DNA from: Escherichia phage vB_ESM-pEJ01
Reading direction: 5' to 3' (one strand)
Sequence record: OP114734.1
Length of the DNA stretch: 64,000 nucleotides
Of this stretch, positions 82 to 57,213 are shown one piece after another. The notes beneath the pieces are model-generated. The model was not told the DNA's origin, did no database searches, and was given only the letters and a program-made list of their open reading frames with translations. Both the position numbers and the translations under genes were made by a program. Every line of letters begins with the position of its first letter. The stretch's first letter is position 1.

Positions 82-588
82 TCAGTCATTATCAATACCA
101 TTCAAATCTGTCAATAATGCTTTTGGAATACGCGTGATCGTAATATCTGCATTATTCAGAATATCAGCCCAATCACGCCCACCATTTCGATCATATGTGT
201 CGCAATAGTATAGATGTTTAATTCCACTGTTTGCAATTGCTTTAGCGCAATCTGGACACGGTGAAGCAGTACACCACATACTAGCGCCTTCAATCGATAC
301 ACCGCTACGGGCAGCAAACAAAATAGCATTTAATTCAGCATGGATTTCGTTTTTCTGTGACCATGCACTATGCTCTGGTCGTTTTTCTGGGATCATTTTG
401 CCGTCATCATCCAGCCAACCGCTTTTATGTGCATGACAGCTACAATTTACTTGCCCTGCTGGAGTTCCGTTAAATCCAGTAGAAATGATTCGCCCGTCTT
501 TTTCGATCAGTGCTCCTACCTTCCACGAAACACATTTAGAGTTCTTTGCGATCAGATAGGCGATCTGCATGTAAGTTTGTGACAACAT
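82..588 (-). CDS. cd: dCMP deaminase
   Basis: 168 aa; zinc-binding deaminase motifs (HAE..., PCxxC); aligns with remembered T4 Cd; sits downstream of pseT as in T4. Confidence 0.9.
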   Translation of the reverse strand: MLSQTYMQIAYLIAKNSKCVSWKVGALIEKDGRIISTGFNGTPAGQVNCSCHAHKSGWLDDDGKMIPEKRPEHSAWSQKNEIHAELNAILFAARSGVSIEGASMWCTASPCPDCAKAIANSGIKHLYYCDTYDRNGGRDWADILNNADITITRIPKALLTDLNGIDND

Positions 589-1712: not shown

Positions 1713-2143
1713 CGTTCCTCATTAAGTTCTTTTCGATAATAACACATGATCAACTTACTTTCAAGTGTATATCTCTTAATATCCGCAAGCCAGACTCTAA
1801 ATTTTTGGGAGTCCTCCCACGACATAGAAACTCTAGGTTTACCGTCTATTGTATCCACTTTCAGGTCAATGTCAACTTTTTCTATTGGTGCTGGTAGTGA
1901 AGGATGTAATTTCGGTTCCTGTGAATAATGGTCCAGTGTACACGAAGAAAGCGCAAATACAATAGGCACAGCGAATACATGGATTATGGCGGTCTGAAAA
2001 TTCTTATGTGCTTTCTTAAACATCCAGTGTATCGCAAAAATTGAAAACACCATCAGGATAATAATGCTTGCACCTATCCCCAGATAATCAACCAGATTAA
2101 AATTGCTTATCTGCTCTTGCGTAGGCAATATTTCTATGCTCAT
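1691..2143 (-). CDS. membrane protein with lipoprotein-like signal (candidate spanin partner)
   Basis: 150 aa; strong SD AAGGAGG 8 nt before the ATG; hydrophobic segment followed by KKAHK...AVPIVFALSSC lipobox-like motif; position equals T4 pseT.2/pseT.3 spanin locus. Confidence 0.35.
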   Translation of the reverse strand: MSIEILPTQEQISNFNLVDYLGIGASIIILMVFSIFAIHWMFKKAHKNFQTAIIHVFAVPIVFALSSCTLDHYSQEPKLHPSLPAPIEKVDIDLKVDTIDGKPRVSMSWEDSQKFRVWLADIKRYTLESKLIMCYYRKELNEERCKPKEK

Positions 2144-2463
2144 TTAGTAGCCTCCTTTAATTCTTCGGTAAACTCCTTAAATGAGTCATTAAGCTGTTTC
2201 TCTACCAACTTGGGTTTTTGTGCTACTACATAGCCTCGTGTAGCGTCTTTCATTGCTTTGTTTTGTTCTTCTGCAAACTTAGTTCTTATTCCGTACATCT
2301 CCTTTTGTAGTGAGTCTACGACCTTCATCTTCTCATCTGTCTTTTTCTTATACTCTGTAAATTCCTGATTCAGTCGATCTACCTCCTTTTTATTTTCCCA
2401 CCACATATTTCCACCTACCCCCAGCAACACAGAGATGATAACAATGTATACCAGCTTTGACAT
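2140..2463 (-). CDS. i-spanin-like protein (N-terminal TM plus coiled coil)
   Basis: 107 aa from MSKLVYIVIISVLLGVGG; single N-terminal TM then charged coiled-coil region; start re-set to ATG at 2463 to avoid overlap with rnlA. Confidence 0.4.
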   Translation of the reverse strand: MSKLVYIVIISVLLGVGGNMWWENKKEVDRLNQEFTEYKKKTDEKMKVVDSLQKEMYGIRTKFAEEQNKAMKDATRGYVVAQKPKLVEKQLNDSFKEFTEELKEATK

Positions 2464-2507
2464 ATTACCCCCAACGACAAAAGGCGGGGAACTAGCCCCG
2501 CTTATTA

Positions 2508-3677
2508 TTACCAATCAATCTTATCAGCCGGAATCAGTTTCTTATAATTCCGTAGATAGTAAGTTTTCATTGAATCCAGAATACGGTCATAATCAAGACC
2601 ATCAAATGCAATCATCAGACACATGAAAATATATGCTTGTGCATCACCATGTTTACGTGATTCGATAGTCGCATTTGATGCATATGTCTTTCTGTCTTCT
2701 CCCGCGTGTGCGTTATAAAATTCTGTTGCTGTCGTGAAGGCATTGCGAAGAATAGACCTGAATGCTTCCTCGAATAACTCGATTCGTTCCAGTGCTTCTG
2801 GTTCGCCTTCATATGCAGCACGCAAATCATCGGTTTCGCTTTCTACGACATAGTAGATCAGGTTATTAGGAAACATCGATGTGTTTTTAATGTTATGCAC
2901 ACCAATATACCATTCACTCTTCACCTTGAACAGTTGACCGTCTTTAGTGCGTGCAACAATTCCTTCGATACCTTCTGCGGTCCGAACTTCATCAAGAATA
3001 TTGCTAAAACGCGCTGAATCAACCTGTAGCGCATTTACCAGATGAGGACGTAGGATTGCGTCAGCAAATAGCATTTGATGCGGTACGTACTCTCCTGTGA
3101 CGTTATGGCGTACATTCAGAAGTGTTAGCGACGGTTCAGAATATTCTACAACAATTCGGTTGCTGGGTGCTGTATATTCAAAGTTGAAAGTATAATCAGA
3201 CCCAATATCAGCAATCTTAGCGCGTAGATCCGCATACTTCTCTGAATACAGAAGACCGTTTGCTCTCTCTGCCTGGCTTGAGTACAAGGCCGCTTTAGAC
3301 TTCAACTGAACATAGCCGGTATCAATGTATGTGCTTACTAGACTACCGTCCATTTTGTCCATGACCATTTCCACATCTTCCGGCTTAAAGCGAGCGCGAT
3401 CATTCTCACCCAAATTAAAAAACTTCTCCATAGGACGAGATGCAATGCGGACCGGACGACCTTTATCGTCAATTTCAAACATGATCCCGCGACACTCTAA
3501 CGCATCTGGTTTATTCCACATTTCAGGTTTGCTCAAGTACAGATAGCTAAAAATGCGCATACGGGTTTGCATCGCCGTAATTTCATCTTTGTAGTAGAAC
3601 GTATCAGATCCGTCACATAGTGCCATCAGATTTTTGAACAATACTAAAACTTTTTTGTTGTTTTCTTTTGTTGACAT
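2508..3677 (-). CDS. rnlA: RNA ligase 1
   Basis: 389 aa track ORF; strong colinear match to remembered T4 gp63 (LFKNLMALC, ECRGIMFE, RIASRPMEKFFNL); the track 5' end overlaps denA by 65 nt so the true start is probably downstream. Confidence 0.85.
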   Translation of the reverse strand: MSTKENNKKVLVLFKNLMALCDGSDTFYYKDEITAMQTRMRIFSYLYLSKPEMWNKPDALECRGIMFEIDDKGRPVRIASRPMEKFFNLGENDRARFKPEDVEMVMDKMDGSLVSTYIDTGYVQLKSKAALYSSQAERANGLLYSEKYADLRAKIADIGSDYTFNFEYTAPSNRIVVEYSEPSLTLLNVRHNVTGEYVPHQMLFADAILRPHLVNALQVDSARFSNILDEVRTAEGIEGIVARTKDGQLFKVKSEWYIGVHNIKNTSMFPNNLIYYVVESETDDLRAAYEGEPEALERIELFEEAFRSILRNAFTTATEFYNAHAGEDRKTYASNATIESRKHGDAQAYIFMCLMIAFDGLDYDRILDSMKTYYLRNYKKLIPADKIDW

Positions 3678-4074
3678 AATTTGTGTTCCATTCTGGTTTA
3701 AATTTGGTGATCAAAACAGGTTCTTCGATATCGGCAGTGCTTATAATATCCTTACCCGTTGGATTCTCAATATATAACTCAAAGCACTGACGGTAATAGA
3801 ATGTTACTGTCTTACCTTCCTCTAGCGCCTTATGAATATTCTTACTCTTGCGAGTATCCGCCGTTGGTGTTTGTCTGTTAATGCTAGTCCGGTAATAATT
3901 GATCCGCTTTCTGAGATTGACAGTCTGTCCAATATATACCAGTTCATCATCAACCACAATAGCATAAAGAACATTTAAACGGTTCTTCTGAGGCGGTAGA
4001 ATCACATCACCATCTTTACACTCTAAACATGAATATTTAACGAATCCATAGTTTTCTATTAGCTCATTAATCAT
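3613..4074 (-). CDS. denA: endonuclease II (GIY-YIG)
   Basis: 153 aa; NVLYAIVVDDELVYIGQTVNLRKRINYYRT matches remembered T4 EndoII almost residue for residue; SD GAGGAAAGG upstream. Confidence 0.85.
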   Translation of the reverse strand: MINELIENYGFVKYSCLECKDGDVILPPQKNRLNVLYAIVVDDELVYIGQTVNLRKRINYYRTSINRQTPTADTRKSKNIHKALEEGKTVTFYYRQCFELYIENPTGKDIISTADIEEPVLITKFKPEWNTNYVNKRKQQKSFSIVQKSDGTM

Positions 4075-9985: not shown

Positions 9986-11206
9986 TTATACTGCCATTTG
10001 AGCGGTGATCGCTGGATGGCTTTGATAGTTGTGAATTTTAAAATCTTTCGGAGTCTTTGTCAATACCTCATCTAAAGATTTAAATTCCGGCAACTCAATT
10101 GTTGGTTTATCAAACGGAACACGGCTTAACTGTTCCATAACTTGATCAAAATGGTTTTTGTAAATGTGAGTATCTCCACCAGAGAAAATCAGTTCTCCTA
10201 CCTCAAGATCACACATTTTCGCTATGATGTGAGTTAACAGCGCATAGCTGGCGACGTTAAAGGGCAAGCCCAAAAAGCTGTCTACGCTTCGCTGAAACCA
10301 CATACAAGACAGTTTACCTTCATTGACGTAGAATTGTACGAACGGATGACATACACCCAATACAGCATTATGTGTTCCTTGTACGTTCCATGAGTCAATG
10401 ATGATACGTCGATCCGTTGGATTGTTTTTAATTTGTTCAATCACGTTTTGTAACTGGTCTTCCCAAATCTTCGGGCGATAGACATATTCTTCATCGTCTT
10501 TAGTGCTTGATGTGTCTACGTCCATACTAACAAACATCGTGGTATCCGGTGCTATAATATCCCCACCCAGATAATCACTATCAAGCAGATAACCGAAATA
10601 ACCATCATCTACCCATTCCTGGAATCCCCACAAGCAATATGCATCATTAACAAAATTAGATTGAGTCTTCCAGTGGTCTGCTACCAGAATATAATCAAAC
10701 TCTTCATAACGCATACCACGCCAGATAGCACATAAACGGTCTTCTGTGTCATTGGTTGGCGTAAAGTCTTCTACCCACGGGTGCTTAAATGTATGTGTAT
10801 ATTTGCTCTTAACGCGCTTAATTTTGATTTCACCATGTGGATGAATCGGTTTGCGTCTCCACGCCATACCATACATATTGCCGACATTATAACCATTGAA
10901 TCGCAAGGGATTCTTTTCTTTCATATCAAGACAGTTGCCGCGCCAAATATCAAAGGCTTCCTCGTCAAACTTGCCGCGTGTAATTTCCTGTAAGCGACGG
11001 CGGTCAAGTGATCCCTCCATAAACCATAGCAATTCGCCAATTACAGAGGCTGTAGCCATCTTTTTAGTGGTCAGTAATGGGAAACCCTTGCTTAAATCAA
11101 TTCGCATCTCTGCGCCGAATTTAGAGAGCGTACCTACCCCCGTGCGGTCTTCACGAGGACAGCCATTATCAAGAACATCACGCAATAGTTTCAAATATTC
11201 TTTCAT
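9986..11206 (-). CDS. td: thymidylate synthase with ~115 aa in-frame insertion
   Basis: 406 aa; N- and C-terminal thirds match remembered T4 Td (C-terminus HPAITAQMAV vs T4 HPPIKGKMAV); extra segment between the WR motif and the ...DRRIIIDSWN block. Confidence 0.85.
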   Translation of the reverse strand: MKEYLKLLRDVLDNGCPREDRTGVGTLSKFGAEMRIDLSKGFPLLTTKKMATASVIGELLWFMEGSLDRRRLQEITRGKFDEEAFDIWRGNCLDMKEKNPLRFNGYNVGNMYGMAWRRKPIHPHGEIKIKRVKSKYTHTFKHPWVEDFTPTNDTEDRLCAIWRGMRYEEFDYILVADHWKTQSNFVNDAYCLWGFQEWVDDGYFGYLLDSDYLGGDIIAPDTTMFVSMDVDTSSTKDDEEYVYRPKIWEDQLQNVIEQIKNNPTDRRIIIDSWNVQGTHNAVLGVCHPFVQFYVNEGKLSCMWFQRSVDSFLGLPFNVASYALLTHIIAKMCDLEVGELIFSGGDTHIYKNHFDQVMEQLSRVPFDKPTIELPEFKSLDEVLTKTPKDFKIHNYQSHPAITAQMAV

Positions 11207-11540: not shown

Positions 11541-12122
11541 TTACGCCTTCTTACGTTCTAAAATTTGTTCGCTGATCAGGTAATCATCAAGGAAGTAATT
11601 ATGTTCTTCTTTTGTTGCAAAGTCAAAATATAATTCCTGAATCATTTCCTTAGAGATGCCAACATCATATTCAAACAGATCATTAATTCCTGATCGTTGA
11701 ACATACGTTAACACAATACGGTCCGCAAAGTCAACTGCTTTTTCAATCAGGGAAGGTCCGCCAATAACGCTTACCAAACCTTGCAATTTCTCTATGACTT
11801 CTAATAATTCCTTCAATCCACCATCATTAGTAATCTCGGTATACACATCTGGTTGGTCGCCGTTTTTTGCTTTCGGTGCTGGCTTACTGGTATCGGTGCT
11901 AACAACCACATTCACACGACCTTCCAGTGCTTTAGGGAGACTTTCAAAGGTATTACGTCCCATTACAACCGCCGCAAGATCAACATCTCCCATAGTGCGC
12001 ATTTTAAAGTTTTCCATGTCCTTTTTGATTGGACGTCCCCACGGTAAACCGCCTTTAAAACCAAAAGCCCAATTTTCATCTGACATTTTAGTATCACCAA
12101 TCGCAAATACACATTGAATCAT
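11541..12122 (-). CDS. frd: dihydrofolate reductase
   Basis: 193 aa; DHFR fold motifs (...GLPWGRP...); upstream of td as in T4. Confidence 0.85.
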   Translation of the reverse strand: MIQCVFAIGDTKMSDENWAFGFKGGLPWGRPIKKDMENFKMRTMGDVDLAAVVMGRNTFESLPKALEGRVNVVVSTDTSKPAPKAKNGDQPDVYTEITNDGGLKELLEVIEKLQGLVSVIGGPSLIEKAVDFADRIVLTYVQRSGINDLFEYDVGISKEMIQELYFDFATKEEHNYFLDDYLISEQILERKKA

Positions 12123-12498: not shown

Positions 12499-12527
12499 AT
12501 TATACTTTGATTCTTACAAACTTGCAA
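12499..12527 (-). promoter_or_regulatory. sigma70-like promoter (TTGCAA-17-TATAAT)
   Basis: canonical spacing; drives ORF 12138..12467. Confidence 0.5.
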
Positions 12528-14088: not shown

Positions 14089-14685
14089 TTAATTGCTTGT
14101 CAATACTTTATCAATTATATCTAACAGTTTTGGCTTTCTATTTTCAAATTCTAACATCTCTTCGGGAGAAATGTCAACTACTTCTGTTTTGTTGAAAAAG
14201 TTTGGGTCTATAGCATCAGCAACAAAGTTTCTCGCAAGTGCTGCCGCTTTCTCATGAACATATATTCCCAAATATATCAACTTCTTTCTTTCGACCTGAA
14301 TATTGGCAACATATTTACCATCTCGTTTATAAAGACTAACACCGATATATTCAGACGATCGACCTTTCTGTTTACCCATATTTCTTGAGTTTTGTTGCTC
14401 GTTCGCATCTCTCAAGTTTTCAATCCGATTATCTGTTATAATTCGGTTAACATGGTCAACGTATTTTGGCATGTATCCATGATGCATAAAGAAAATTATT
14501 CTATGCTCTTTATGATGTTTACCATCGATACACACCAATCTGTATCCATGACTAGGATTAACTCCACCCGCTCTAGATCCGACTTTATGCTTTCGGTTTG
14601 TCGATATCTTGCGAATCAGCTTACCGTTATCATATTTAAAGAGTTCATGACAACGAGCATACAATTCAGGATCATATGTTTTCAC
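14089..14685 (-). mobile_element. freestanding HNH homing endonuclease with AP2-like DNA-binding domain
   Basis: 198 aa; HNH core ...KEHRIIFFMHHGYMPKYVDHVNRIITDNRIENLRDANEQQNSRN followed by YIGVSLYKRDGKYVANIQV AP2-like module; inserted between genes 32 and 59. Confidence 0.8.
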
Positions 14686-15885: not shown

Positions 15886-16482
15886 TTAACCCTCTTTCGT
15901 CATTAATTGAAAACCACGTTCAGCTTTTGAAATTTCGCTAGGACTTAAATCGTCACCCACATATTCTAGCATCATTTCTCGGATAATGTCAAGTGCTTTT
16001 TCATCACCTGATTTTAACTCGAACTTAAGTTCATAGTGAGCATCTCCCATGACTTCGCCGACTTTGCAATAATAGAAAGTGTCTTTGCACATTTCCACTA
16101 TAGCACCCTCAAGGTCAAGTGTCAATGACTTGCGGTATGTCATTACTTGCAATAAAGGAACGATAAGGTCGGAGTTTACGCCTAGACTATCAACATAGTG
16201 ATAGAAATCATCCATTGTTGAAAAAGTAATTTCTTCTCGGTTGAATAGTCCAGATTCACCATCACCTATTTTGACCATGATCAATGATCTATTAACGTCA
16301 AGTCGAGCATAAATTCCTTTTCGACGCAGTGCATGATCTTCGGTATCATAATAAAATTCGTGTTTTAGTGTGTTAGCATGATCTACGATATTGTACCCGT
16401 CATACATTGCTACCCACAAATCACAGATTGTTTCGACGCCAATTTGTGAGTGTGCATAGTATTTTAATTCAAGTTCTTTCAT
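15886..16482 (-). CDS. CYTH-like (triphosphate tunnel metalloenzyme) protein
   Basis: 198 aa; N-terminal ELELK (ExExK), YYDTEDHALRRKGIYARL, HYELKFELK acidic/basic motifs typical of the CYTH fold; no T4 counterpart at this junction. Confidence 0.45.
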   Translation of the reverse strand: MKELELKYYAHSQIGVETICDLWVAMYDGYNIVDHANTLKHEFYYDTEDHALRRKGIYARLDVNRSLIMVKIGDGESGLFNREEITFSTMDDFYHYVDSLGVNSDLIVPLLQVMTYRKSLTLDLEGAIVEMCKDTFYYCKVGEVMGDAHYELKFELKSGDEKALDIIREMMLEYVGDDLSPSEISKAERGFQLMTKEG

Positions 16483-17634: not shown

Positions 17635-18216
17635 TCATCCTCTTTTTGGAAAATTTAAATAAGCATACTCGCCAACTATTTCATGTGCTGCACGGTCATA
17701 AGCCTTAGCCGCCTCAACTTCTGTCTCAAAGTATCCTAGATGTATATTCTTTCGATTGATAACAATATACGCCTTCCACGGCTTTTTCTTGCTTGGTGAT
17801 AATGATACACCTTTATATTTGCTATGGCAAGCCTTTTTCTTTGAGACGTTAAACTGATTTTGCTGTTCGGTTGCTTCTCTCATGTTTGACGGTCTATTGT
17901 TAGTTTTGTCTTGGTCTATGTGATCTATTCGTTCAACCTGAGTACCATACTCTAAAAACCAGACAACTCTATGTACAAACAGATTAAGTTTATGACCATT
18001 GTTGTAAAATGTAAAGTATAAATATCCTTCTTTATGGAGACATACCCTTACCACATCACCTTTTTTGTATATGGACCCTTCTTTTCGGAATCCAGCAGCT
18101 ACAGAATCCTTTAAATGGTATAATATTCCATCGACATGATAGAATCTACCTTTTATCGCTTTCTGTGTCTCGATATCCCAAAATTTTGTTTTTGCCACAA
18201 CAAACACCTCACACAA
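17635..18216 (-). mobile_element. freestanding HNH-AP2 homing endonuclease
   Basis: 193 aa; VVWFLEYGTQVERIDHIDQDKTNNRPSNMREATEQQN HNH core plus YKGVSLSP...WKAYI AP2-like domain; paralog of 39976..40539. Confidence 0.8.
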
Positions 18217-30654: not shown

Positions 30655-31413
30655 TTACTTGCAAACGTATTGATCTACATCAATTGCTCCACCGAATGTA
30701 GGATGACGTTTTTCAAATCGAATAGTTCCGTCGTTTGGTTCGAAAACGGAGTATTCATATAGATCTTTCTTGCCAACATTCTTATAAAACCCGCCTTTAG
30801 TCATAACGGTTTCTTGTACGTTTGCTTTGTGTACGTTGTATTCGTCAATGTATACAAAATCAACCATCTTCCCATTTTTAATGGTTACTTTAAGATCTCC
30901 TGGTTGATTTCCATATTTGGCATACAGTGGCGCTTCTTTAATTTTTGTGGAAATTCCATCTTTCATACTCCACTCATAACGAACGGTGCATTGATAGGTA
31001 AAAGTTTCGACCTTCGGTTCTTCCACCACTTTTTCTTCCTGTTTCGGTTGTTCTTCTTCAACCTTCGCAGAAGTCTCTGAATCGCTTTCTGACGCGGTTT
31101 CTTCTTTAGGTAATACATTCATCAAGTTTTGGATTTGAGCGTTGTATACAGCCTCCAGTGGCTGAATCTGCCCGATATTGATCATTGTATCACGAACAGT
31201 TTTATTCCAGTTGCGTTGCTCTTGTTTAAGAGACGGATCAATCTTAACAGCCTTAACATACACCTCATGAAGTTTCGAATCCAGTGCTGAGATTGACTCA
31301 TTAGCACAAATAAACTTCTCTGATTTGGTAGTGGCTTTAGCGCAATCAAAGGACGCAGCATTAGCACCGAAAGCAGTAGCGGAAATAACGATAGCAGCGA
31401 TAATGTTTTTCAT
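30655..31413 (-). CDS. secreted protein with LprI-like (DUF1311, lysozyme-inhibitor-like) N-terminal domain
   Basis: 252 aa; signal peptide MKNIIAAIVISATAFGANA; FDCAKATTKSEKFICANESISALDSKL...QRNW motif; SD GAGGAA and promoter 31448..31476. Confidence 0.5.
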   Translation of the reverse strand: MKNIIAAIVISATAFGANAASFDCAKATTKSEKFICANESISALDSKLHEVYVKAVKIDPSLKQEQRNWNKTVRDTMINIGQIQPLEAVYNAQIQNLMNVLPKEETASESDSETSAKVEEEQPKQEEKVVEEPKVETFTYQCTVRYEWSMKDGISTKIKEAPLYAKYGNQPGDLKVTIKNGKMVDFVYIDEYNVHKANVQETVMTKGGFYKNVGKKDLYEYSVFEPNDGTIRFEKRHPTFGGAIDVDQYVCK

Positions 31414-33187: not shown

Positions 33188-34545
33188 CCCTTCTTAAGTT
33201 CTTTAAGATCTTTCTTATATTCCTTCATTGCGGTCGTCTTTGTCCAATACTCATATTCACTATGATGTTTCTCGGCATCTTTGACCAGTCGATCATACTC
33301 TTCTTGAGTAACGCTATACAATGGCATAGAAACTAGCTTATCGGCGTATGGACGCAGTTTTTCATGTCCATTGATGGATTGCATTACCTCGTCCTTTTTC
33401 TTTCCCTGTAGCTCGATTTCGCCCTTAATTACGCGATCGATAAATTCGGCTTTAGCCATTGCATAATTGTATGCTTCCAGCGTTTCCGCTTGCATCAATT
33501 CAATGCGTTTATCGACATACCCTAATCGGATTTCGACGAATCGACGGATCAGATCGCTCGCTTTCTCGAATACTTCTACTAAACCACGTTCGTTAACTAC
33601 TACGATATTCTGGGCTACTAACTGCGTTAGTTTAAAATCCTTCATGATTTGCTCATGTCGAGCGGATTCATCTTCGCTTTTGAAATAATCGCGTTTCAGT
33701 GTTACTTCAAATCTGAATCCGTCCTTAGAGCAACGGTCATTATACGATACAATCAGATCTTTTTCTTCCAGTGCATCCAGTACCGCTACATATTCTTCAC
33801 GGTCGAACTTATAAGGAACTTCTGATATTGTCAGTTTAGTCTTGCCGTTTAGTTCATATGTACCCTCAAGAATCACACCATCGCGATCATCTCGCGGGAT
33901 AACTTTACCTGTGAATTTCGGGAATTGAACACTAGGTTCTTTATCCAGTTTTCCGGTAAGTGCTAGCTCTGTGCATTCAATAAGGCTTTCCAGTGAATGC
34001 GGTAAAATGTCAGTTTTATACCCTGTAGCAATACCACTAATACCATTAGCCAATACCATTGGCACAACTGGCAAGTAGAAAGCTGGCGGGATGTGTTCCA
34101 GATCTTCGTGCTTAGGTGCGCAATTCATATCTTTATAGATTTTAAAGAAGTTTTCATGCACACGAGCAAAGATATAACGTGCCGCACCTGCTTTCTGGAC
34201 TAAACGCGATCCGAAGTTACCTTGACCGTCAAGCAGTGGAGTATTATTGCTCCATGTATTCGCCATGAGTGATCCGGCTTCTACGGCATTAGTTTCGCCG
34301 TGGTGATAACCCAACTCGGCAACACCAGATCCAATATCTGCCATCTTACGGAATTTCTTACGGTCGCCTTTACTCTTTTGAAGTGCGCACTCCATAACAA
34401 AGCGTTGCACTGGTTTAAGCCCATCCACTAATTGAGGAATCCCGCGTTCCTCGGCAGAATAGATCGCATATTCCTTAGCTTCATTATGTACAATGCTTTC
34501 AAGGCTGCGGTAAGTAACTGATTTATTCATCTTCACCTCATACAC
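33184..34545 (-). CDS. 52: DNA topoisomerase II medium subunit gp52
   Basis: 453 aa; GyrA-like N-terminal domain (QLVDGLKPVQRFVM..., active-site Tyr region), T4 gp52-like size. Confidence 0.88.
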   Translation of the reverse strand: MYEVKMNKSVTYRSLESIVHNEAKEYAIYSAEERGIPQLVDGLKPVQRFVMECALQKSKGDRKKFRKMADIGSGVAELGYHHGETNAVEAGSLMANTWSNNTPLLDGQGNFGSRLVQKAGAARYIFARVHENFFKIYKDMNCAPKHEDLEHIPPAFYLPVVPMVLANGISGIATGYKTDILPHSLESLIECTELALTGKLDKEPSVQFPKFTGKVIPRDDRDGVILEGTYELNGKTKLTISEVPYKFDREEYVAVLDALEEKDLIVSYNDRCSKDGFRFEVTLKRDYFKSEDESARHEQIMKDFKLTQLVAQNIVVVNERGLVEVFEKASDLIRRFVEIRLGYVDKRIELMQAETLEAYNYAMAKAEFIDRVIKGEIELQGKKKDEVMQSINGHEKLRPYADKLVSMPLYSVTQEEYDRLVKDAEKHHSEYEYWTKTTAMKEYKKDLKELKKG

Positions 34546-34900
34546 GCTTACAAATCACATTCTTTACTTTATCAGATTTATCAGCCCAATCCAATAGCCA
34601 TTTTAACGGAAGGATTGAAACAATAAACGGGGCAGCAATCAAAGCAAACATGATACACCGGATAATCAGGAAAGTGCAAGTAACAAAGCTAGCGATACTG
34701 ATCCCGACAAAACAAAATACCATAGAAAACAGAGTAATGATATAGAAAGGCCAGAATACCCACTCCCGCATCTTAACGCCTTTGTATTCCCTGAATTGCT
34801 TAAAATCTACAAACAACTCTCGGATAGACGCGTACAGGACCGAAAAATCATCTTTCATTGCTCTGAATGAGCAATCTTCTATTTTAGAATGACCTAGCAT
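34538..34900 (-). CDS. membrane protein
   Basis: 120 aa; two to three predicted TM helices. Confidence 0.4.
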   Translation of the reverse strand: MLGHSKIEDCSFRAMKDDFSVLYASIRELFVDFKQFREYKGVKMREWVFWPFYIITLFSMVFCFVGISIASFVTCTFLIIRCIMFALIAAPFIVSILPLKWLLDWADKSDKVKNVICKRV

Positions 34901-34902
34901 TA

Positions 34903-35196
34903 TTAACCGCCTTTCATCATTGATACTGGAATTGTTTTCTGATTTGTGTATAATTGGCCTACTTCAATTTTTTCTTGAATCACCACGACGTTACAATATC
35001 CACTGTCTTTAAGTTTTCTGATAATGACTCGCTTTTGTTCGTCGGTGATAGGATTGACTGTTCTCACCAATTCACCGCAAATAATAGCACCATCTTTACA
35101 ATTACCAGTAACTTTCATGCTACGACCGTGAACAACAACCACGTCACCGTAAATCACATTTTCGTCGTCGTATTTGGTAATAACCGTGACCGTCAT
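34903..35196 (-). CDS. hypothetical protein
   Basis: 97 aa track ORF. Confidence 0.4.
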   Translation of the reverse strand: MTVTVITKYDDENVIYGDVVVVHGRSMKVTGNCKDGAIICGELVRTVNPITDEQKRVIIRKLKDSGYCNVVVIQEKIEVGQLYTNQKTIPVSMMKGG

Positions 35197-35241
35197 AATG
35201 TATTCCCTCTAAGAAAGGCCGCGCAAAGCGGCCTATGTTGA

Positions 35242-35574
35242 TTATTGTTCTACAGTATAACCGTTGTTTTCAAGCCATGCAATAACAATCTTTTCGCCAA
35301 TTTCATCGAGCATTTCATCAGCGCCATATTCTTTAATGAAAGTCGATGGATCATTATTGCTTACTACGTGCTGGATCACAACATGTTCAGGAATTGCGTC
35401 TAGTAGTTCGCTATGATCATACTCATTAACGATATCTTCAACACTAACATTATTAACCAAATCAACATCATCCATAGTCACAGTAACGCGACCGGACGGA
35501 CGCAATGAATATTGGCTACTTTCAACTTCAACATGTGCACTTTCGCAAGTAACTTTCATATCAACCATAATCAA
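35242..35574 (-). CDS. hypothetical acidic protein
   Basis: 110 aa track ORF just downstream of rIIB. Confidence 0.4.
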   Translation of the reverse strand: MIMVDMKVTCESAHVEVESSQYSLRPSGRVTVTMDDVDLVNNVSVEDIVNEYDHSELLDAIPEHVVIQHVVSNNDPSTFIKEYGADEMLDEIGEKIVIAWLENNGYTVEQ

Positions 35575-39975: not shown

Positions 39976-40539
39976 TCAACTAAAATTTAAAGATGCAAAC
40001 TCCCCGTGATGAATTTTTGCATATTCATCATATGCTCTAGCGGCTTCCTCCTGAGTAGCAAACGATCCTATGTATTTTCTGTATCCGTTTATCCTTATTT
40101 GTGCTTGCCACGGTCTTTTGCTAGATCCTTTGCGATGAGTAACACCATTATATATGCTCGTGCACCCGTCCATTTTCTTTTTATTGTACATGTTTTGTTG
40201 TTGTGTTGCCTCCCGTAAATTTGGTGGATTGTTGTTTTCTGGATTCCCGTCTATGTGGTCTATTACCTTAACCTGTGTTCCATATTCAAGAAACCAGACA
40301 ATTCTATGTACAAGATATGTAGATGTTCTCTTTTTAACCTTATTGTAAACATCTATTGCCAAATGACCGTAATTTAACTTTTTTGTTTTTACTTTATCAC
40401 CGACTCGGTAGAAATATCCCTCTGGTAGACCATTAAAAGACGGACTATTTGTTTTGTGATATAGAACACCTTCCGTGTGTTCAAATCTGCGTTTTAATTC
40501 CTCTTGAATTTCAGTATTCCAAAATTTCGCACTTTTCAT
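39976..40539 (-). mobile_element. freestanding HNH-AP2 homing endonuclease
   Basis: 187 aa; IVWFLEYGTQVKVIDHIDGNPENNNPPNLREATQQQN plus AP2-like YNGVTHR...WQAQIRINGY; ATG 1 nt after the gene 39 stop. Confidence 0.8.
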
Positions 40540-47002: not shown

Positions 47003-47527
47003 TTAGTAGCCTCGTTCTTGACGGGCGAAGTTTTCAGCATTTTTCAGATAGTACAGAATAAAGAGTTCTTGAGCGTCAATACCCAGCGGGATCATCTTTG
47101 ACAGAATGAAGTGGATCGCGTCCACAAATTCAAATTTCACTTCAAGCTGATCTTCCGGTGACAGTTCAGAGAATTTACGCGCTCGCGCTTCTCCGTGGTT
47201 CTTTTTCCACATTTTCCAGATTGCACTTGCATCTTTACCATTGGACATTCCACCCAGCGATGTGTAAAGCTCTCGTGTTTCGTCTGCGATAGCGTCATCC
47301 ATCCGCTGCATCCAATCCAGCATTTCACCGCAAGTCTCTAGCTTAGTTGGATTTGGGACCCAATCAAATTTTTCGGATAATGCAACCTGCAAACCAGTTT
47401 GCATTTCGAGCATCACCTGAAACGGATCTTTACCTTCTGCAATAGCGTGATGATATGCGGCGATAGCCGCGTTAATATCTTTTTCGTTAACCAGACCAGC
47501 ACAAGAATTAAATTCTGACATATTCAC
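47003..47527 (-). CDS. 56: MazG-like dCTP/dUTP pyrophosphatase
   Basis: 174 aa; KDPFQVMLEMQ, SPEDQLEVKFEFVDAIHF and C-terminal LYYLKNAENFARQERGY fit the T4 gp56-type enzyme; adjacent to gene 61 as in T4. Confidence 0.7.
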   Translation of the reverse strand: MNMSEFNSCAGLVNEKDINAAIAAYHHAIAEGKDPFQVMLEMQTGLQVALSEKFDWVPNPTKLETCGEMLDWMQRMDDAIADETRELYTSLGGMSNGKDASAIWKMWKKNHGEARARKFSELSPEDQLEVKFEFVDAIHFILSKMIPLGIDAQELFILYYLKNAENFARQERGY

Positions 47528-51956: not shown

Positions 51957-52733
51957 TTATTCTATGTCAACAAATTTCCAATTTGGAAAGTCTGGACTCA
52001 TACAACGACGCCGAACGGTTCCGCGCTCGTTTCCTAGTACCTTAGATACTTCCGATACAGATTTATAAATCACACCATCAACAAATACAGCCTTTCGGTC
52101 TTTCCTGTTTTGGTTTTTGCTCTTTTCTCTTCTGGCTTCTACGTTATCCGAATCATTCCATTGTCTCTTTGCTGTCTCTCTGGAAGATATTGCCTTTTGT
52201 TCTTTAACAATATCTTTAACGAGTTGTTCTTGTCCTGTTATCTTCGCCCACACATTAACAGACTGGATAGCATTAGCCTCACTCATTCCCCAGCGTTTGC
52301 CGGATATATTCTTACGACGCACGCGTAGAAATTCGTTAAAGACTTCTTCGCATTGGTGCATATAATCACGAAATCCATATTTCTTAGCCCATGCCTCTTT
52401 AATTGCATCAGACATATTTTCGGCAATACGTCTACGCATCCATGCATACTCCTTATTATTGCGACCGTGACTGGTCATGCACATCATACGCGAAGCCATA
52501 ATAAGACCCACATGTTTAGGATACATTTTAGCTAAAAGTAGATGTGCTGTAAAGTGTTCCTCTGGAGTCAATGGAACGAGATTTTCGTGGTCATCGGTTC
52601 CACCCATACAACGTGGTTTAACGTGATGGATCTCTACATATCCGGTCGGCTTCTCGCGGGTTCTTGCTCGTTCAATCAATTTTTTGTAATGTGCTTTGTA
52701 GTTCATGTGATCCTCCATATGAAAAAGGGGCAT
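51957..52733 (-). mobile_element. freestanding HNH homing endonuclease (basic C-terminal DNA-binding region)
   Basis: 258 aa; HNH core GYVEIHHVKPRCMGGTDDHENLVPLTPEEH; lysine/arginine-rich C-terminal half; inserted between uvsX and gene 40/41. Confidence 0.75.
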
Positions 52734-52757
52734 AACGCCCCTTAACTGTCACTGATA

Positions 52758-53828
52758 TTATGCTAACATATCTTCGATTTCTTTGTCAACTGCTTCGTCG
52801 CTGATAATCTGGCCTAACTGATAATGATCGTTGATTGCTTTCTGGAAGTGCTCATTGGTCAGTAGAGGTTTCCAGAACTCCACACTGTCAGTGTCTTTTG
52901 CACGCACCTTGCGGTCTTCAACTTCCATTTCTCCGGTCTCCTCGTTAAGAATAGCGCGAGAATACCAGCCATTTGATGGTTTAACTACCCAACCCAACTC
53001 CACCGCAAGATCCAGCAATCCAGAATAAGGATCGATGCCACCACTAAACGTTACGCTAATCGGGAACTTTGATCCCTCTCTAACCGTTCGTGATTTCTCG
53101 GCTTTCAGAATAAAGTCATAACCCGTAACCTCGGTTCCTTCTTTCTGCTGGCGACGCCCAATGATGAAAATTTCATTGGAAGAGTAAACGCCACCAGTAC
53201 CGCCACCCATGATATCTTTCGGGTAAAGATCCATTGAGCTATAAACGTGGTTAATCGCAATGCACGGAATATCATTCATGGTCAGATACGGCGTAATCAT
53301 ACGGAACAAGCCTTTAAGTGCTTTAGCTCTCGTCATATCCTGTGCCGATTTCTCATTAATCGCGTCTTCAACTTCTTTTTTACTTGCCAAGTTACCGATT
53401 GAGTCAATAAAGATGATCACTTTATCTTCACGGGTAATTTGCTCAAGCTGGTTCATGATCTCAAATTTAAGTTCTTCGATGTTCTTGATTGGAACGTGCA
53501 CCACTCGATCAGGATCTACACCCATAGATGACAGATACGCGGAAGTAATGCCAAATTCTGAATCAAAGAACAAACAAGCCGCATCTGGATTCTGTTTCAT
53601 GTATGCACTAACACAAGTTAATCCCATGTTTGATTTAAAGTGCTTAGACGGACCAGCAAAGAAAATCAGACCAGATTGAAAGCCTTTTTTAAGATCACCA
53701 GAAAACGCAATATTCAGCATCGGGATCTTAGTGCGAGTATTTGTTTTTTCGTTAAAGAAGCTGGATTTAGACAGTACCGCAGTAGTTTTCAGGGTAGAGT
53801 TCTTTTTCAGTTTTTCCAGTACAGACAT
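52758..53828 (-). CDS. uvsX: UvsX recombinase (RecA-like)
   Basis: 356 aa; colinear with remembered T4 UvsX (GPSKHFKSNMGLT, FFDSEFGIT, IDSIGNLASKKE, CIAINH). Confidence 0.9.
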   Translation of the reverse strand: MSVLEKLKKNSTLKTTAVLSKSSFFNEKTNTRTKIPMLNIAFSGDLKKGFQSGLIFFAGPSKHFKSNMGLTCVSAYMKQNPDAACLFFDSEFGITSAYLSSMGVDPDRVVHVPIKNIEELKFEIMNQLEQITREDKVIIFIDSIGNLASKKEVEDAINEKSAQDMTRAKALKGLFRMITPYLTMNDIPCIAINHVYSSMDLYPKDIMGGGTGGVYSSNEIFIIGRRQQKEGTEVTGYDFILKAEKSRTVREGSKFPISVTFSGGIDPYSGLLDLAVELGWVVKPSNGWYSRAILNEETGEMEVEDRKVRAKDTDSVEFWKPLLTNEHFQKAINDHYQLGQIISDEAVDKEIEDMLA

Positions 53829-53839
53829 TATTAATACCT

Positions 53840-54067
53840 CTATTCAGTTAATCCGTAATACTTTAATTGCTTCATTGTTATTCGATCTTTGTAGTGCTCT
53901 TGAATTAACTTTTTCATCACATCAACATCGATCGTCACAAATACTTCGTTGCTGTGATTTCCGTGAACTTTCTTGAAATGCTCTATGCCTTCCTCACGTT
54001 CACGTTTAATCTTTTCAATGTCTCTCATAATATATTTCTCACATTGGCGGGTATCGTAACCCAACAC
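53840..54067 (-). CDS. hypothetical small protein
   Basis: 75 aa; the only ORF between gene 43 and uvsX. Confidence 0.4.
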   Translation of the reverse strand: MLGYDTRQCEKYIMRDIEKIKREREEGIEHFKKVHGNHSNEVFVTIDVDVMKKLIQEHYKDRITMKQLKYYGLTE

Positions 54068-54089
54068 CCGCCATTATACACACTTTATC

Positions 54090-56768
54090 TTAAATGTCAA
54101 ACAGGTCCGTAAGCGATGCCACCTTTTCATATTGCAGCTTTGCAGCCGTGGTAATGTTCTCCAGTGGTTTGACGAAAGTCTTATTAAACAACAAAGGCCA
54201 GTCCAACCACTTCAACACCTCTGATTCAATTTCTGGAGGAATACGAGTACCAGACAACCAACCAAAACAGATTTCTCCAAACGGATTTCGATCTTTAAGC
54301 GGTACAATCATAACCTTCTCGCCTTCACGAATCGGATCTAGTCCGAATTTTCGAGCATTACGATTATAACACAATACACTCTTAACCGCATACGGACAAC
54401 CCTTAATCGGATACCCGTTTGAATCGCTGTATTTCTGTAGGTTGTTTGCAGATGATACCGCAGCAACATCAAGATAGTCAAGTTTTCTAAATTCTTGCTC
54501 AAAAATACCGTAGTATTCCTGCAATGACTCTTCACCTTCCTGCAACATACGGCGAATACATTCTTTCAGTGATTTCTGACATGCTTTAGGGGTGGAGCTA
54601 CGTTGCGTTTCCAAGCCCATGATTTTTAGCTTAGGTTCAGCAAAGCGCGTTCCTTCCATATCCCAAACATTAAGAGCATAACGCTTTTTGCCAGTCCAGA
54701 ATCCACCGATACCCGCAGATTTCAACGGAGGACCAGCAATTGCCTCACGGTCCATAAACATCAAGTGCTCATAGTTGTTCATGTACTCGCATAACTCGCG
54801 ATATCCCTTGTCGATAATAGGTTCCATTCGATGTTTACCGAAATTATCAAGGAAGTCAACAAGTTTTTCGGTATCGTCGAAACGATCTTCCCCGCCAACC
54901 TTATCAACAACATTGTTAACCAGCACATAAACGGAGTCAGTATCACAATAACGAACATATGCAAAATCGGTTGTTCCGCAAAGCTCGTTTAAGTATTCGT
55001 TAATCTTACGCTCAATCCACTGAATTGCAAGCTGACCGAACAGTGTGATCGCACTAGCGTTACGGAGATCATAAAAACGGAATTTAGGATTCCCCAACGC
55101 ACCATAAAGTGAGTTGATCAAAACTTTTCGAGAAAGCTGGTTTGTATTGCACAAGATCGACTCGTCTTTACATTCTTCCAGCAATTTCTCTAAGGTATCT
55201 TTGCTTAATTCAGAAAGCATCGATTTAAACGCTTCATCGAAGTCGTGACGCACTTCAACGCTATAGCTAATGGTTCCCCCATAAACATGATTTTCATCGT
55301 GTAGAATCGCTTTACATAGTTCAGCATTGCGATCACATGCCAACATCATGTTTTTGTACTGCTTACGCTGATCGAATACCTTTTTAATCTCAATCGGTAC
55401 GATACCATGAATATCTTTTCTATACATCCATCCGTTAGGCGAGCAAGAATACTCATCACTCGGACGTGGTGCAGTTTTATTGATATACTCGTGCATCGGT
55501 GCAGCATCAAAAGATCCAGCGATTGTTTCAGGAGAAATATTAACCTGTCGAATAATAGATGGGTACAGACTTGTTAAGTCAAAGCTCATCATCCAACGGT
55601 AAGCATTTGGCACAGGTTCTTTTACAAATGCGCCTGGATACGTCTGCTTAGGCTGTATCTTATTTTCCGGTACTACTTTACCCTCAGCTTTCAGAGATCC
55701 GAAGATAATAGCATCCCATACTTTCATCGGGTTATAAACATGGTTAAATTTAATCTTTGCATAGAAACATAGACTATACACAAGATCGATAAATCCACGC
55801 TTTTTATCAATCGCCAGCACACGATCAACGTCGCCGATGTTATAATCGATGTAAAGTTGATGGTTGTCATCACGCAATTTCTTTAACGGACCATCATAAT
55901 CAACCTTACCGATTCCTGTCTCATATTCAGCAACATAATCTAACGCATATGTTGGTTGAGTCGTAAAGCTAAATTTCTTGTACAGGTCAATATAATCAAG
56001 GCTTTCGATCCCCATGATCGTAAATGCTTCACGCTCGTTGCCAAAATCATCCTGTGAGATTCTGGATTTAATCTTACCGCACGGGCTTAGACGGTTAGCG
56101 GTTCTACTTCCGAACTTATTACTGATACGTTTAATGATATATGGAATATCGAATGTTTCTGTGTTCCAGCCAGTGAAACCAACGGGTCGGTTTTCCTCAA
56201 AGAATCGGATGTATTCTAACAGCAATTCATCTTCTGTGTCATAGACGTTATAAACAACGCGCTCTACAATATCAGGTCGAAGAATAGACTTGCTTGCTTC
56301 CCAGATTTCACCGTTTTTTCCTTTCAAATCAAATACAAAGAAACGATCATGTACGGAATCATAATGCGTAATTGCATCGATAGGATATTTCGCTTCTTCT
56401 GGTTTAGGAAATTCTGGGGCAGTGACCTCAATATCAACCCATGCTACACGGATTTTATTTCGGTCATATCGAATCTCGCCTTTATACGTATCAGACAGAT
56501 AGGAGATGATAAAATCATCCATCCCTAGTGCCTCCTGCCCCATTTCTCCCATCTTTTTACGCCATTTGTTGGCCTCGTTCATAGATGGGAATTTTTTAGC
56601 AATGCAAGGCTTGCCATAGATATCTTTATAATTCGTAACCATACCAGGCGCGGCATGATGAAATAATGTTGGCGTATATTCAACGTAACGCTCTTGTTCT
56701 TGTCCAGCATCATCAATATAACGCTCGTAGATCTTATCACCTACTCGCTCACATGACAGAAAATACAT
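54090..56768 (-). CDS. 43: DNA polymerase gp43 (family B)
   Basis: 892 aa from ATG at 56768 (SD GAAGGAG; the track ORF starts at an upstream GTG); colinear with remembered T4 gp43 including exo and pol motifs (FDIE, YGDTDS, KILINSLYGALG). Confidence 0.93.
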   Translation of the reverse strand: MYFLSCERVGDKIYERYIDDAGQEQERYVEYTPTLFHHAAPGMVTNYKDIYGKPCIAKKFPSMNEANKWRKKMGEMGQEALGMDDFIISYLSDTYKGEIRYDRNKIRVAWVDIEVTAPEFPKPEEAKYPIDAITHYDSVHDRFFVFDLKGKNGEIWEASKSILRPDIVERVVYNVYDTEDELLLEYIRFFEENRPVGFTGWNTETFDIPYIIKRISNKFGSRTANRLSPCGKIKSRISQDDFGNEREAFTIMGIESLDYIDLYKKFSFTTQPTYALDYVAEYETGIGKVDYDGPLKKLRDDNHQLYIDYNIGDVDRVLAIDKKRGFIDLVYSLCFYAKIKFNHVYNPMKVWDAIIFGSLKAEGKVVPENKIQPKQTYPGAFVKEPVPNAYRWMMSFDLTSLYPSIIRQVNISPETIAGSFDAAPMHEYINKTAPRPSDEYSCSPNGWMYRKDIHGIVPIEIKKVFDQRKQYKNMMLACDRNAELCKAILHDENHVYGGTISYSVEVRHDFDEAFKSMLSELSKDTLEKLLEECKDESILCNTNQLSRKVLINSLYGALGNPKFRFYDLRNASAITLFGQLAIQWIERKINEYLNELCGTTDFAYVRYCDTDSVYVLVNNVVDKVGGEDRFDDTEKLVDFLDNFGKHRMEPIIDKGYRELCEYMNNYEHLMFMDREAIAGPPLKSAGIGGFWTGKKRYALNVWDMEGTRFAEPKLKIMGLETQRSSTPKACQKSLKECIRRMLQEGEESLQEYYGIFEQEFRKLDYLDVAAVSSANNLQKYSDSNGYPIKGCPYAVKSVLCYNRNARKFGLDPIREGEKVMIVPLKDRNPFGEICFGWLSGTRIPPEIESEVLKWLDWPLLFNKTFVKPLENITTAAKLQYEKVASLTDLFDI

Positions 56769-56800
56769 AATATAAACTCCTTCATTTACGAAAGACACTC

Positions 56801-56829
56801 ATTATAGGGGAATCGACCTAGTTTGTCAA
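56801..56829 (-). promoter_or_regulatory. sigma70-like promoter (TTGACA-17-TATAAT) upstream of gene 43
   Basis: GGGG...CCCC inverted repeat flanks the -35. Confidence 0.5.
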
Positions 56830-56850
56830 TACCCCTATCCCATCAGTATC

Positions 56851-57213
56851 TTAGCGTCCGATCTGATATTTCTCGATCAGCGTCCACTCTTCTTTCTGTT
56901 TGAAAGACAGTACACGGAAATTATTAACTTCGGTAGTTTCAAAATCACTATCAATCAGGGTACACAGATTCCACTGCGCCAGAAGTTTTGCAATGTTATT
57001 ACGGCGTAATTCATCTTCCCACGTCATTTTAACACTACGACCATCTAATTTCAACAACTCCTTGAAATGAACGATGTAATAGCGCCCCTTCTTCTGGAGA
57101 ATATGACAAGACTGATACAGTGTCTTGTCTCGATTGTTGGCAATGCCGCAGCGGGTTAAAGTCTCCTTAATTTTAAGGAAGTTTTCAGGACTAATCAAAT
57201 TAATTTCAATCAT
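56851..57213 (-). CDS. regA: translational repressor RegA
   Basis: 120 aa; MIEINLISPENFLKIKETLTRCGIANNRDKTLYQSCHILQKKGRYYIVHFKE almost identical to remembered T4 RegA. Confidence 0.92.
   Translation of the reverse strand: MIEINLISPENFLKIKETLTRCGIANNRDKTLYQSCHILQKKGRYYIVHFKELLKLDGRSVKMTWEDELRRNNIAKLLAQWNLCTLIDSDFETTEVNNFRVLSFKQKEEWTLIEKYQIGR

Follow-up and report, generated by a model that had tools for sequence, protein, structure and literature searches.

The near-empty uvsX–gene 43 slot of Escherichia phage vB_ESM-pEJ01, an RB49-like phage that very probably uses ordinary dCTP

In the 64,000-nucleotide stretch of Escherichia phage vB_ESM-pEJ01 analysed here (OP114734.1; hereafter the window), the genes for the recombinase UvsX and the DNA polymerase gp43 lie close together on the minus strand, which also carries every other feature given below. 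The uvsX gene (52758..53828) encodes a RecA-like recombinase of 356 aa, 60% identical to T4 UvsX (E 8e-149) and annotated as uvsX in RB49 and KFS-EC. Gene 43 (54090..56768) is uninterrupted and its product is 55% identical to T4 gp43 over 903 aa; the ORF can also be read from a GTG at 56798, and the KFS-EC and RB49 annotation gives a protein of 892 aa. Between the uvsX start codon (53826-53828) and the gene 43 stop codon (54090-54092) there is a gap of 261 bp (53829-54089) with a single ORF on the coding strand. In the T4 record the same slot holds segA, b-gt, 42, imm and imm.1, about 3.6 kb, whereas the window has one unrelated gene there and no counterpart in the slot of the T4 hydroxymethylase, glucosyltransferase or Imm. 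The flanks (41, 40, uvsX on one side and 43, regA, 62, 44, 45 on the other) are syntenic with those of T4, the compared proteins being 33-60% identical. The first-pass annotation had described the canonical gene 42/beta-gt/imm slot as holding only one ORF, of 75 aa; the gap and the T4 record confirm that the ORF is the only one, yet its length is probably 62 aa (53840-54028). In other T4-like phages uvsX and 43 are even closer, as in Klebsiella phiKp_26/KpF2, Cronobacter LPCS28 and Aeromonas Ah1, and thus it is the filled slot that is a peculiarity of the T-even phages.

By sequence comparison, the window belongs to an RB49-like phage of the genus Krischvirus ('pseudo-T-even'), a relative of T4. 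Its nucleotide identity to Escherichia virus KFS-EC is 98.3% over 4.2 kb and 99.6% over 2.4 kb, and that to RB49 and to about 56 other Krischvirus records about 95%; in 58 records the match spans 80% or more of the query, and the order uvsX, small ORF, 43 is common to these relatives. The genus assignment rests on this high identity and on the synteny shared with RB49 and KFS-EC. At the junction itself the gene order is the same in RB49 (NC_005066), KFS-EC (NC_055757) and the window, and the small 62-aa ORF is 100% identical to that of KFS-EC and differs from that of RB49 by 2 aa. The near-empty uvsX-43 slot is therefore the normal, published RB49-type layout.

Upstream of the small ORF we found a sigma-70 early promoter (54073..54100) with all 12 consensus positions matched (TTGACA, 16 nt, TATAAT), its -35 box overlapping the final codons of gene 43; in the RB49 annotation, the same promoter is listed as hypothetical and early. 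At its 5' end, the transcript predicted from it would form a G/C-rich hairpin (54046..54072; GGCGGGUGUUG-loop-CGAUACCCGCC) with a dG of -21.5 kcal/mol and z = -5.9 against shuffles, and behind it a U-tract is absent. The promoter is identical in RB49, KFS-EC and SAP, and the hairpin is also common to RB49 and KFS-EC. This arrangement resembles the PeSL (promoter-early stem-loop) elements of RB49/phi1 (Arbiol et al. 2010; Comeau et al. 2014, PMC4122927), in which a near-perfect TTGACA...TATAAT is likewise accompanied by a stem-loop of a G-run and a C-run. The hairpin has the GN-loop-CN form described for those elements (PMC4122927), and PeSL cassettes precede small ORFs with no known relatives or function, a placement matched here. 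The near-consensus early promoter and the G/C stem-loop adjoining a small ORF are thus present, but the plasticity of PeSL elements (insertion, deletion or exchange between relatives, or mini-circle formation) is not seen: the site showed no indel, and cassette and small ORF do not vary among the Krischvirus records examined. The junction cassette also differs in lying inside a conserved replication-gene block, while the PeSL of RB49/phi1 lie in a hyperplastic region, and in having its stem-loop downstream of the -10 box. Most likely, the junction is an RB49-type PeSL-like cassette driving early transcription of the small ORF and of uvsX, which starts 11 nt past the end of the ORF and would be co-transcribed with it. 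Many similar units of promoter and hairpin occur on the minus strand of the window, for example at 58855, 46995, 42454 and 39979.

The small early ORF (53840..54028) is the equivalent of RB49p025 and KFS-EC gp184. All annotated relatives start it at the ATG at 54028, giving these 62 aa; the alternative reading from a GTG (53840-54067, 75 aa) is probably an overcall, because this GTG falls within the hairpin, right behind the -10 box. The protein matches PHROG 12120 (3.1e-41), a family with no assigned function, over its full length (residues 1-62 on a 62-position profile), and its identity is 96.8% or more across about 58 Krischvirus records; with 3-4 differences among the compared relatives, the changes are too few for dN/dS. 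A search of 5.8 billion proteins returned four near-identical clusters only. Homologues with 43-50% identity occur in unrelated phages of 45-50 kb; that of Salmonella phage Akira (gp37) is a free-standing protein, and in Klebsiella phage BUCT791 the homologue forms the N-terminus of a nuclease of the DUF2800/PD-(D/E)XK type. AlphaFold2 predicted three helices in what is a poor model (pLDDT 62.8), and Foldseek found no fold match for it in the PDB. As our best guess, and a tentative one, the protein might be an accessory module, helical and rich in His, that acts in replication or recombination, since Klebsiella phages have this domain fused to a Cas4/RecB-like nuclease beside a DNA polymerase gene.

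Its position, and a size near that of imm (83 aa), would also suit the decayed remains of a T4 slot gene (imm, imm.1, 42 or b-gt) after a deletion, and Pfam returned a sub-threshold T4_Spackle match (E 0.04; 14.9 bits, the cutoff being 27) besides a sub-threshold one to Arginase. We give this origin almost no credence. The T4 slot proteins (Imm, Imm.1, gp42, b-gt) showed no similarity by tblastn within 53829-54089, and the Spackle match runs partly over residues upstream of the likely start. The ORF product is highly charged, with no hydrophobic stretch or membrane segment, unlike Imm, an 83-aa membrane protein to which it has no tblastn match; moreover, it has a family of its own, with homologues in unrelated phages of siphovirus size.

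The missing slot genes do not turn up elsewhere. Neither the window nor the complete genomes of KFS-EC and SAP yielded, in tblastn with T4 proteins, a homologue of gp42, alpha-gt, beta-gt, Imm, Imm.1, Alc, DenB, Ndd or Arn, apart from distant matches of gp42 to the thymidylate synthase Td (E 0.002 in the window, 2e-4 in KFS-EC, and 2e-4 to 6e-3 overall). In the window, alc, denB, ndd, arn and both glucosyltransferases gave nothing better than E = 0.1, and for the glucosyltransferases no match in the window, KFS-EC or SAP fell below E 0.5; a glucosyltransferase is likewise not reported in PMC13390438. The same set of searches was positive for gp56, cd, denA, frd and dam. The T4 positions of several of these genes are recognizable: in the T4 record alc lies between pseT.3 and rnlA, and here the spanin gene (pseT.3-like) and rnlA (2140..3677) overlap (ORFs 2140-2514 and 2508-3677) with no alc match, while three small ORFs (34538..35574) with no Pfam, denB or ndd match occupy the stretch from gene 52 to rIIB, where T4 has denB, ndd, ac and stp. 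Thus, the earlier statements that gene 42 and beta-gt are missing from their T4 position and that alc and denB are not seen in the window are borne out. Among the hallmarks of a T4-type hydroxymethylcytosine system, the dCTPase/dUTPase gp56 was found; a gp42 with Asp at the position of Asn177 of thymidylate synthase, a DNA alpha- or beta-glucosyltransferase, and alc and denB together with the anti-restriction gene arn were not. The same pattern is recorded for the RB49 type by Petrov et al. (2010, Table 4; PMC2993671), where 42, alc and denB are absent.

The sole gene of the thymidylate synthase fold in the window is td (9986..11206), matched by Pfam PF00303 (1.5e-84) in two stretches separated by an internal insertion of about 130 aa. 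Its product aligns with E. coli ThyA (7e-69), has the catalytic Cys and, in GLPFNVASYA, carries the dUMP-specifying Asn where T4 gp42 aligns Asp179, the residue of the hydroxymethylase type. An intein was considered for the insertion and rejected, as the junctions lack the Cys ... His-Asn/Cys signature; we read it as an inserted domain. The other retained nucleotide enzymes are close to those of T4: the gene 56 homologue (47003..47521), a dCTPase/dUTPase of the all-alpha NTP pyrophosphatases, matches T4 gp56 with E 7e-51 and 49-51% identity by tblastn (Pfam dUTPase_2 3e-5; PHROG 173), and cd (82..588; dCMP deaminase), denA (3613..4074; endonuclease II) and frd (11541..12122; dihydrofolate reductase) encode products 56% (E 1e-60), 49% (E 4e-42) and 37% (E 1e-24) identical to T4 Cd, DenA and Frd, respectively. 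The calls of dCMP deaminase, gene 56, endonuclease II and Td made at first sight are therefore upheld by tblastn or Pfam, but the argument built on them, that such a set suggests modified cytosine, fails: 56 and denA occur in nearly all T4 relatives, the RB49 type included (Petrov et al. 2010, Table 4; PMC2993671). Finding dCMP deaminase, gp56, endonuclease II and Td in a T4-like phage does not mark its DNA as modified, and caution is due where they are read in that way. Most simply, the retained enzymes need not be relics of cytosine replacement. Gp56, Cd, Td, Frd and NrdAB may serve to keep dUTP out of DNA and to shift the pool towards dTTP, which would suit a genome of 59% A+T, gp56 and Cd having a presumed role in balancing the pool.

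Overall, we consider it very probable that this is an RB49-like Krischvirus using ordinary dCTP, without the T4-type hydroxymethylcytosine network and without the T-even block in the slot. The lineage would replicate with ordinary dCTP, lacking gp42, alpha- and beta-glucosyltransferase, alc, denB, ndd, arn and imm; with that network and imm missing, the segA/b-gt/42/imm/imm.1 block would simply not stand between uvsX and 43, and in its place a compact junction would run from the early promoter over the end of gene 43 through a stable 5' hairpin and the 62-aa ORF to uvsX. The earlier proposal had instead been that the modification genes are relocated or that the chemistry differs from that of T4. 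In a simple rearrangement, the hydroxymethylase and glucosyltransferase genes of a T4-like hydroxymethylcytosine phage would have moved outside the 64-kb window, which spans about 39% of a genome of some 164 kb, and the retention of gp56, cd and denA would fit such a phage. Relocation is nonetheless very improbable and was not supported by the rest-of-genome search for gp42-like and glycosyltransferase genes, run on KFS-EC and SAP: these complete genomes have no homologue of gp42, a-gt, b-gt, alc or denB anywhere, gp42 finding only Td with its thymidylate-synthase Asn. Large ORFs beyond the window have matches to helicase, methyltransferase, ADP-ribosyltransferase and RlaP or none, with no glycosyltransferase or TS-fold among them, and published surveys agree (PMC13390438; PMC2993671). 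The DNA of close relatives, moreover, is unmodified: HpaII and NheI cut RB49 DNA, which has no hmC or glucosyl-hmC (PMC4041780), and HPLC-MS of Krischvirus TB34 gave canonical nucleosides, cytosine included (PMC13390438). From the absence of the genes in complete relatives and the plain cytosine of RB49 and TB34 we conclude that the genes were not relocated and that the DNA of this phage is most likely unmodified, 64 kb having been read and the rest extrapolated from relatives with 95-99% identity. A chemistry different from that of T4 is then true in the trivial sense that cytosine is likely unmodified, though the reasoning behind the claim fails.

There is, however, one contrary report. T6-like modification was described in 2026 for Krischvirus SAP, whose DNA is reported to contain about one-third 5-hmdC and two-thirds alpha-gentiobiosyl-methyl-dC and to show BrxU sensitivity, with no candidate genes (PMC13390438). 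Were Krischvirus to hypermodify cytosine by a pathway non-homologous to gp42 and the DNA glycosyltransferases, the enzymes would be encoded by ORFs that match no family, and gp56, Cd and DenA would be conserved accessories of the pathway; an enzyme unrelated in sequence could escape sequence searches. If true, this would mean an unrecognised pathway hidden in Krischvirus ORFs that lack an assigned function. We regard it as very improbable, if a little less so than relocation. RB49 DNA is unmodified, and the modification profile of SAP is that of seven Tequatrovirus phages from the same collection (PMC13390438). In the SAP/TB34 authors' own variant table, all 14 SNPs between the two phages fall on the middle base of a CCSGG site; the remaining differences, about 50 in number, are indels of a single base, many of which appear in the annotation as frameshifts in essential genes (43, 45, uvsX and 47 among them). 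The differences being only artefact-like, SAP and TB34 are genetically the same phage, and TB34 has canonical cytosine. We thus suspect a mix-up of stocks or DNA, which is the simpler reading of the SAP result.

Replication and packaging of cytosine DNA by a T4-type machinery has a laboratory parallel in the T4 dC mutants (42-, 56-, denB-, alc-), which, like Krischvirus, manage without gp42, DenB and Alc. Both these mutants and RB49 transduce, the latter having been found to transduce plasmids. A difference is that the laboratory T4 dC phage must lose gene 56 too; Krischvirus has retained a homologue of it, whose product shares about 50% identity with T4 gp56. Counted against cytosine DNA is the need to tolerate the phage's own DenA and gp56, the latter a dCTPase in T4.

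The empty slot in itself matters little, being a rediscovery of a textbook difference between T-even and 'pseudo-T-even' phages, reportedly described with the RB49 genome. The distribution of the genes, too, is already known (Petrov et al. 2010, Table 4; PMC2993671). As to the quality of the record, systematic CCSGG errors in the window were considered and rejected, three of four sites agreeing with Illumina-sequenced SAP. Immediately downstream of uvsX, a free-standing HNH homing endonuclease gene (51957..52733; Pfam I-TevI DNA-binding domain 2.7e-6, HNH 0.0019) is shared with KFS-EC, where it is annotated, and is not present in RB49; further HNH-AP2 endonuclease genes of the window are not annotated in KFS-EC.

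The uvsX-gene 43 interval of this window has the genome layout already known from RB49-like phages with unmodified cytosine. On the minus strand, the genes follow one another in the order 45, 44, 62, regA, 43, a small ORF, uvsX, an HNH endonuclease gene, 40 and 41. The 261 bp that run from the stop codon of gene 43 (54090-56768 or 56798, minus strand) to the start codon of uvsX (52758-53828, minus strand) hold a single ORF, as the first-pass annotation had stated. This ORF can be read as 75 aa from a GTG at 54067 or as 62 aa from an ATG at 54028; the shorter form, called in every annotated relative, is the likelier one, since the GTG forms the first bases of a hairpin starting immediately past a -10 box. 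A megablast search of 50,697 phage records with 52700-56900 as query gave at least 80% query coverage in 58 records, with best identities in Escherichia virus KFS-EC (98.3%), Shigella phage Sf20 (96.1%) and RB49 (95.7%), and the order DNA polymerase, hypothetical protein, recombinase in all the records listed. Taxonomy was checked for KFS-EC, RB49 and TB34, all of which belong to Krischvirus; KFS-EC is 99.6% identical over a 2.4-kb query spanning the junction.

In the T4 record, segA, b-gt, 42, imm and imm.1 (~3.6 kb) lie between uvsX and 43, alc sits between pseT.3 and rnlA, and denB and ndd between rIIB and 52. T4 proteins were used as tblastn queries against the window, the whole KFS-EC genome (five pieces joined) and the whole SAP genome. 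In all three, gp56 (49-51% identical to T4), Cd (55-56%), DenA (49-50%) and Frd (35-37%) found matches, as did Dam (46%) in KFS-EC and SAP, outside the window; b-gt, a-gt, imm, imm.1, alc, denB, ndd and arn gave no match better than E = 0.1, and gp42 hit only the thymidylate synthase gene (E 2e-4 to 6e-3). The reported absence of gene 42, beta-gt, alc and denB from the window is therefore real. Where T4 has alc, the spanin gene and rnlA overlap here, and where it has denB and ndd there stand three small ORFs without family match. The proposed check for gp42-like and glycosyltransferase genes beyond the window was made in the complete genomes of the relatives KFS-EC and SAP and yielded no glucosyltransferase and no gp42 match other than Td; the large KFS-EC ORFs outside the window gave no glycosyltransferase or thymidylate synthase-fold match, only helicase, methyltransferase, ADP-ribosyltransferase and RlaP matches or no family match.

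From cd, 56, denA and td, the first-pass annotation had surmised a modified cytosine, with modification genes relocated or a chemistry unlike that of T4. The observation was sound, the interpretation largely wrong. The gene pattern is exactly the one published by Petrov et al. (2010; PMC2993671, Table 4), with gene 42 alleles in T-even, JS98, RB69, CC31, Acinetobacter and some Aeromonas phages and none in the RB49 type, alc and denB being distributed as gene 42 is. RB49 lacks hydroxymethylase and beta-glucosyltransferase, its DNA is cut by HpaII and NheI, and hmC and glucosyl-hmC are absent (Yaung et al. 2014, PMC4041780); plasmids are moved by RB49 generalized transduction despite its denA and gene 56. 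TB34 has canonical nucleosides by HPLC-MS, and Krischvirus genomes lack homologues of 5hmdCMP/5hodCMP synthases and DNA glucosyltransferases (2026, PMC13390438). Given these data, the genes have not been relocated, and the premise that cd, 56, denA and td point to modified cytosine fails.

One report is discordant: in Krischvirus SAP, about one-third 5-hmdC and two-thirds alpha-gentiobiosyl-methyl-dC were described, without genetic explanation (PMC13390438). Taken at face value, it would call for a hidden, non-homologous modification pathway in SAP, a reading to which we assign very little probability. In the first 40 kb all eight substitutions between SAP and TB34 are a SAP C against a TB34 T at the central base of CCSGG, the remaining differences being single-base indels, most of which fall within short homopolymers. 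The authors' genome-wide variant table lists 14 SNPs and ~50 single-base indels, many of them entered as frameshifts hitting essential genes (e.g. 43, 45, uvsX, 47, 39, nrdB; PMC13390438); all 14 SNPs fall at CCSGG centres, with C/G in SAP and T/A in TB34 (OZ034687.1 vs OX001802.1), and affect 14 of the 32 CCSGG sites of SAP. These differences look like sequencing artefacts of the TB34 assembly, and the two records therefore represent the same phage. Seven Tequatrovirus phages of the same collection, moreover, have the same modification profile as SAP (PMC13390438). A mix-up of SAP stock or DNA thus seems, we infer, the simplest explanation. The CCSGG-centred SNPs suggest motif-specific miscalling in TB34, possibly because a phage methyltransferase methylates cytosine at CCSGG or CCNGG. 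The pattern went unremarked in the published analysis. The annotation of TB34 includes a "hypothetical C-5 cytosine DNA methylase" and that of KFS-EC three DNA methyltransferases; CCSGG is ~3.5-fold under-represented (32 sites vs ~112 expected).

Td (9986-11206, minus strand) aligns with E. coli ThyA (7e-69) and keeps the catalytic Cys and the Asn of GLPFNVASYA, onto which Asp179 of gp42 falls in direct BLASTP. Substrate specificity in this family is set by Asn177 in thymidylate synthase and Asp179 in the hydroxymethylase; with Asn in place of Asp179, Td acts on dUMP and not on dCMP. It is 406 aa long (264 in E. coli, 286 in T4) and carries an in-frame insert of ~130 aa (residues ~120-249; window ~10460-10850, minus strand) between ThyA positions ~105 and 110, at which no intein-like junctions were found. 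The insert is kept in all Krischvirus records (91-100%), and has relatives at 31-34% within thyA of the jumbo phages Klebsiella KP13-7 and Escherichia UE-S1 and in a Vibrio phage gene annotated as HNH endonuclease.

Several T4-like lineages (Klebsiella phiKp_26 and KpF2, Cronobacter LPCS28, Aeromonas Ah1) have a uvsX-gene 43 stretch shorter than here, with only those two genes annotated. The filled interval is therefore a T-even feature and not a canonical state lost by Krischvirus. A perfect TTGACA-16-TATAAT promoter (54100-54073, minus strand), whose -35 box lies within the last gene 43 codons and whose RB49 equivalent is annotated as an early promoter, runs directly into a hairpin (-21.5 kcal/mol, z = -5.9) without a U-tract, followed by a GAG-type ribosome-binding sequence and the ATG of the ORF. 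A gap of 11 nt, with no terminator, separates the end of the ORF from the uvsX ATG. The architecture is that of the PeSL (promoter-early stem-loop) elements of RB49 and phi1, a near-perfect sigma-70 promoter and a G-run/C-run stem-loop beside small ORFs (PMC4122927). The promoter would drive early transcription of the ORF and uvsX, and the hairpin may stabilise the transcript 5' end. KFS-EC has exactly this cassette and RB49 and SAP have it almost unchanged, so the site shows no sign of recent shuffling. Near-consensus sigma-70 promoters are numerous on the minus strand (e.g. 58855-58827, 46995-46967, 42454-42427, 39979-39952), several running straight into G/C-rich hairpins (GGGGAGTG...CTCCCC, GCCTCC...GGAGGC, GGGAGTCTCCC); such PeSL-like units are scattered across the early-gene regions.

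The 62-aa protein belongs to PHROG 12120 (function unknown). By tblastn it occurs in ~58 Krischvirus records at 96.8% identity or more, and a search of a large protein database gave near-identical relatives only. Homologues with 43-50% identity exist in unrelated 45-50 kb phages. The one in Salmonella phage Akira is encoded by a free-standing 60-aa gene beside the terminase genes (L010, the Akira stretch, 2447-2629), and the one in Klebsiella phage BUCT791 forms the N-terminal ~50 residues of a 430-aa DUF2800/PD-(D/E)XK nuclease (L011, the BUCT791 stretch, 2468-3760), encoded ~1.1 kb upstream of a DNA polymerase gene. The conserved core, AIEHFKxxHGNHSxEV, has three invariant histidines, and this His-rich mini-domain seems not to have been reported before. 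Being charged and helical, with no membrane segment, the protein is not an Imm analogue by sequence; its AlphaFold2 model was weak and gave no fold match. Very tentatively, it might serve replication or recombination as a small accessory module.

The minus strand carries three free-standing genes for HNH-AP2 homing endonucleases, between 32 and 59 (14089-14685), after rnh (17635-18216) and beside gene 39 (39976-40539). At least the first is without counterpart in KFS-EC, where the 32-59 gap is just 60 nt, and vB_ESM-pEJ01 is richer in homing endonucleases than this closest relative. The HNH gene between uvsX and gene 40 (51957-52733, minus strand), with an I-TevI-type DNA-binding domain, has a counterpart in KFS-EC but not in RB49. 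Gene 43 is uninterrupted here (54090-56768); in JEP8, G5211, ELT4, MIZ4 and MIZ5 the match to the polymerase gene is split into two parts ~1.1 kb apart, with an HNH endonuclease annotated under the match in MIZ4 and MIZ5. JSE is already known to have such an intron. Also on the minus strand are a 145-aa ORF (12500-12937) with a Rha-type N-terminal domain and a DUF559 (Vsr-like endonuclease) domain; a conserved 198-aa Krischvirus protein between dsbA and rnh (15886-16482; PHROG 14893, unknown function) with a CYTH (triphosphate tunnel metalloenzyme) match that just reaches the Pfam threshold (6.7e-5, 23.2 bits); and a 252-aa protein (30655-31413; PHROG 14799, unknown function) whose N-terminus matches an LprI lysozyme-inhibitor-like domain (Pfam PF07007, 1.3e-5).
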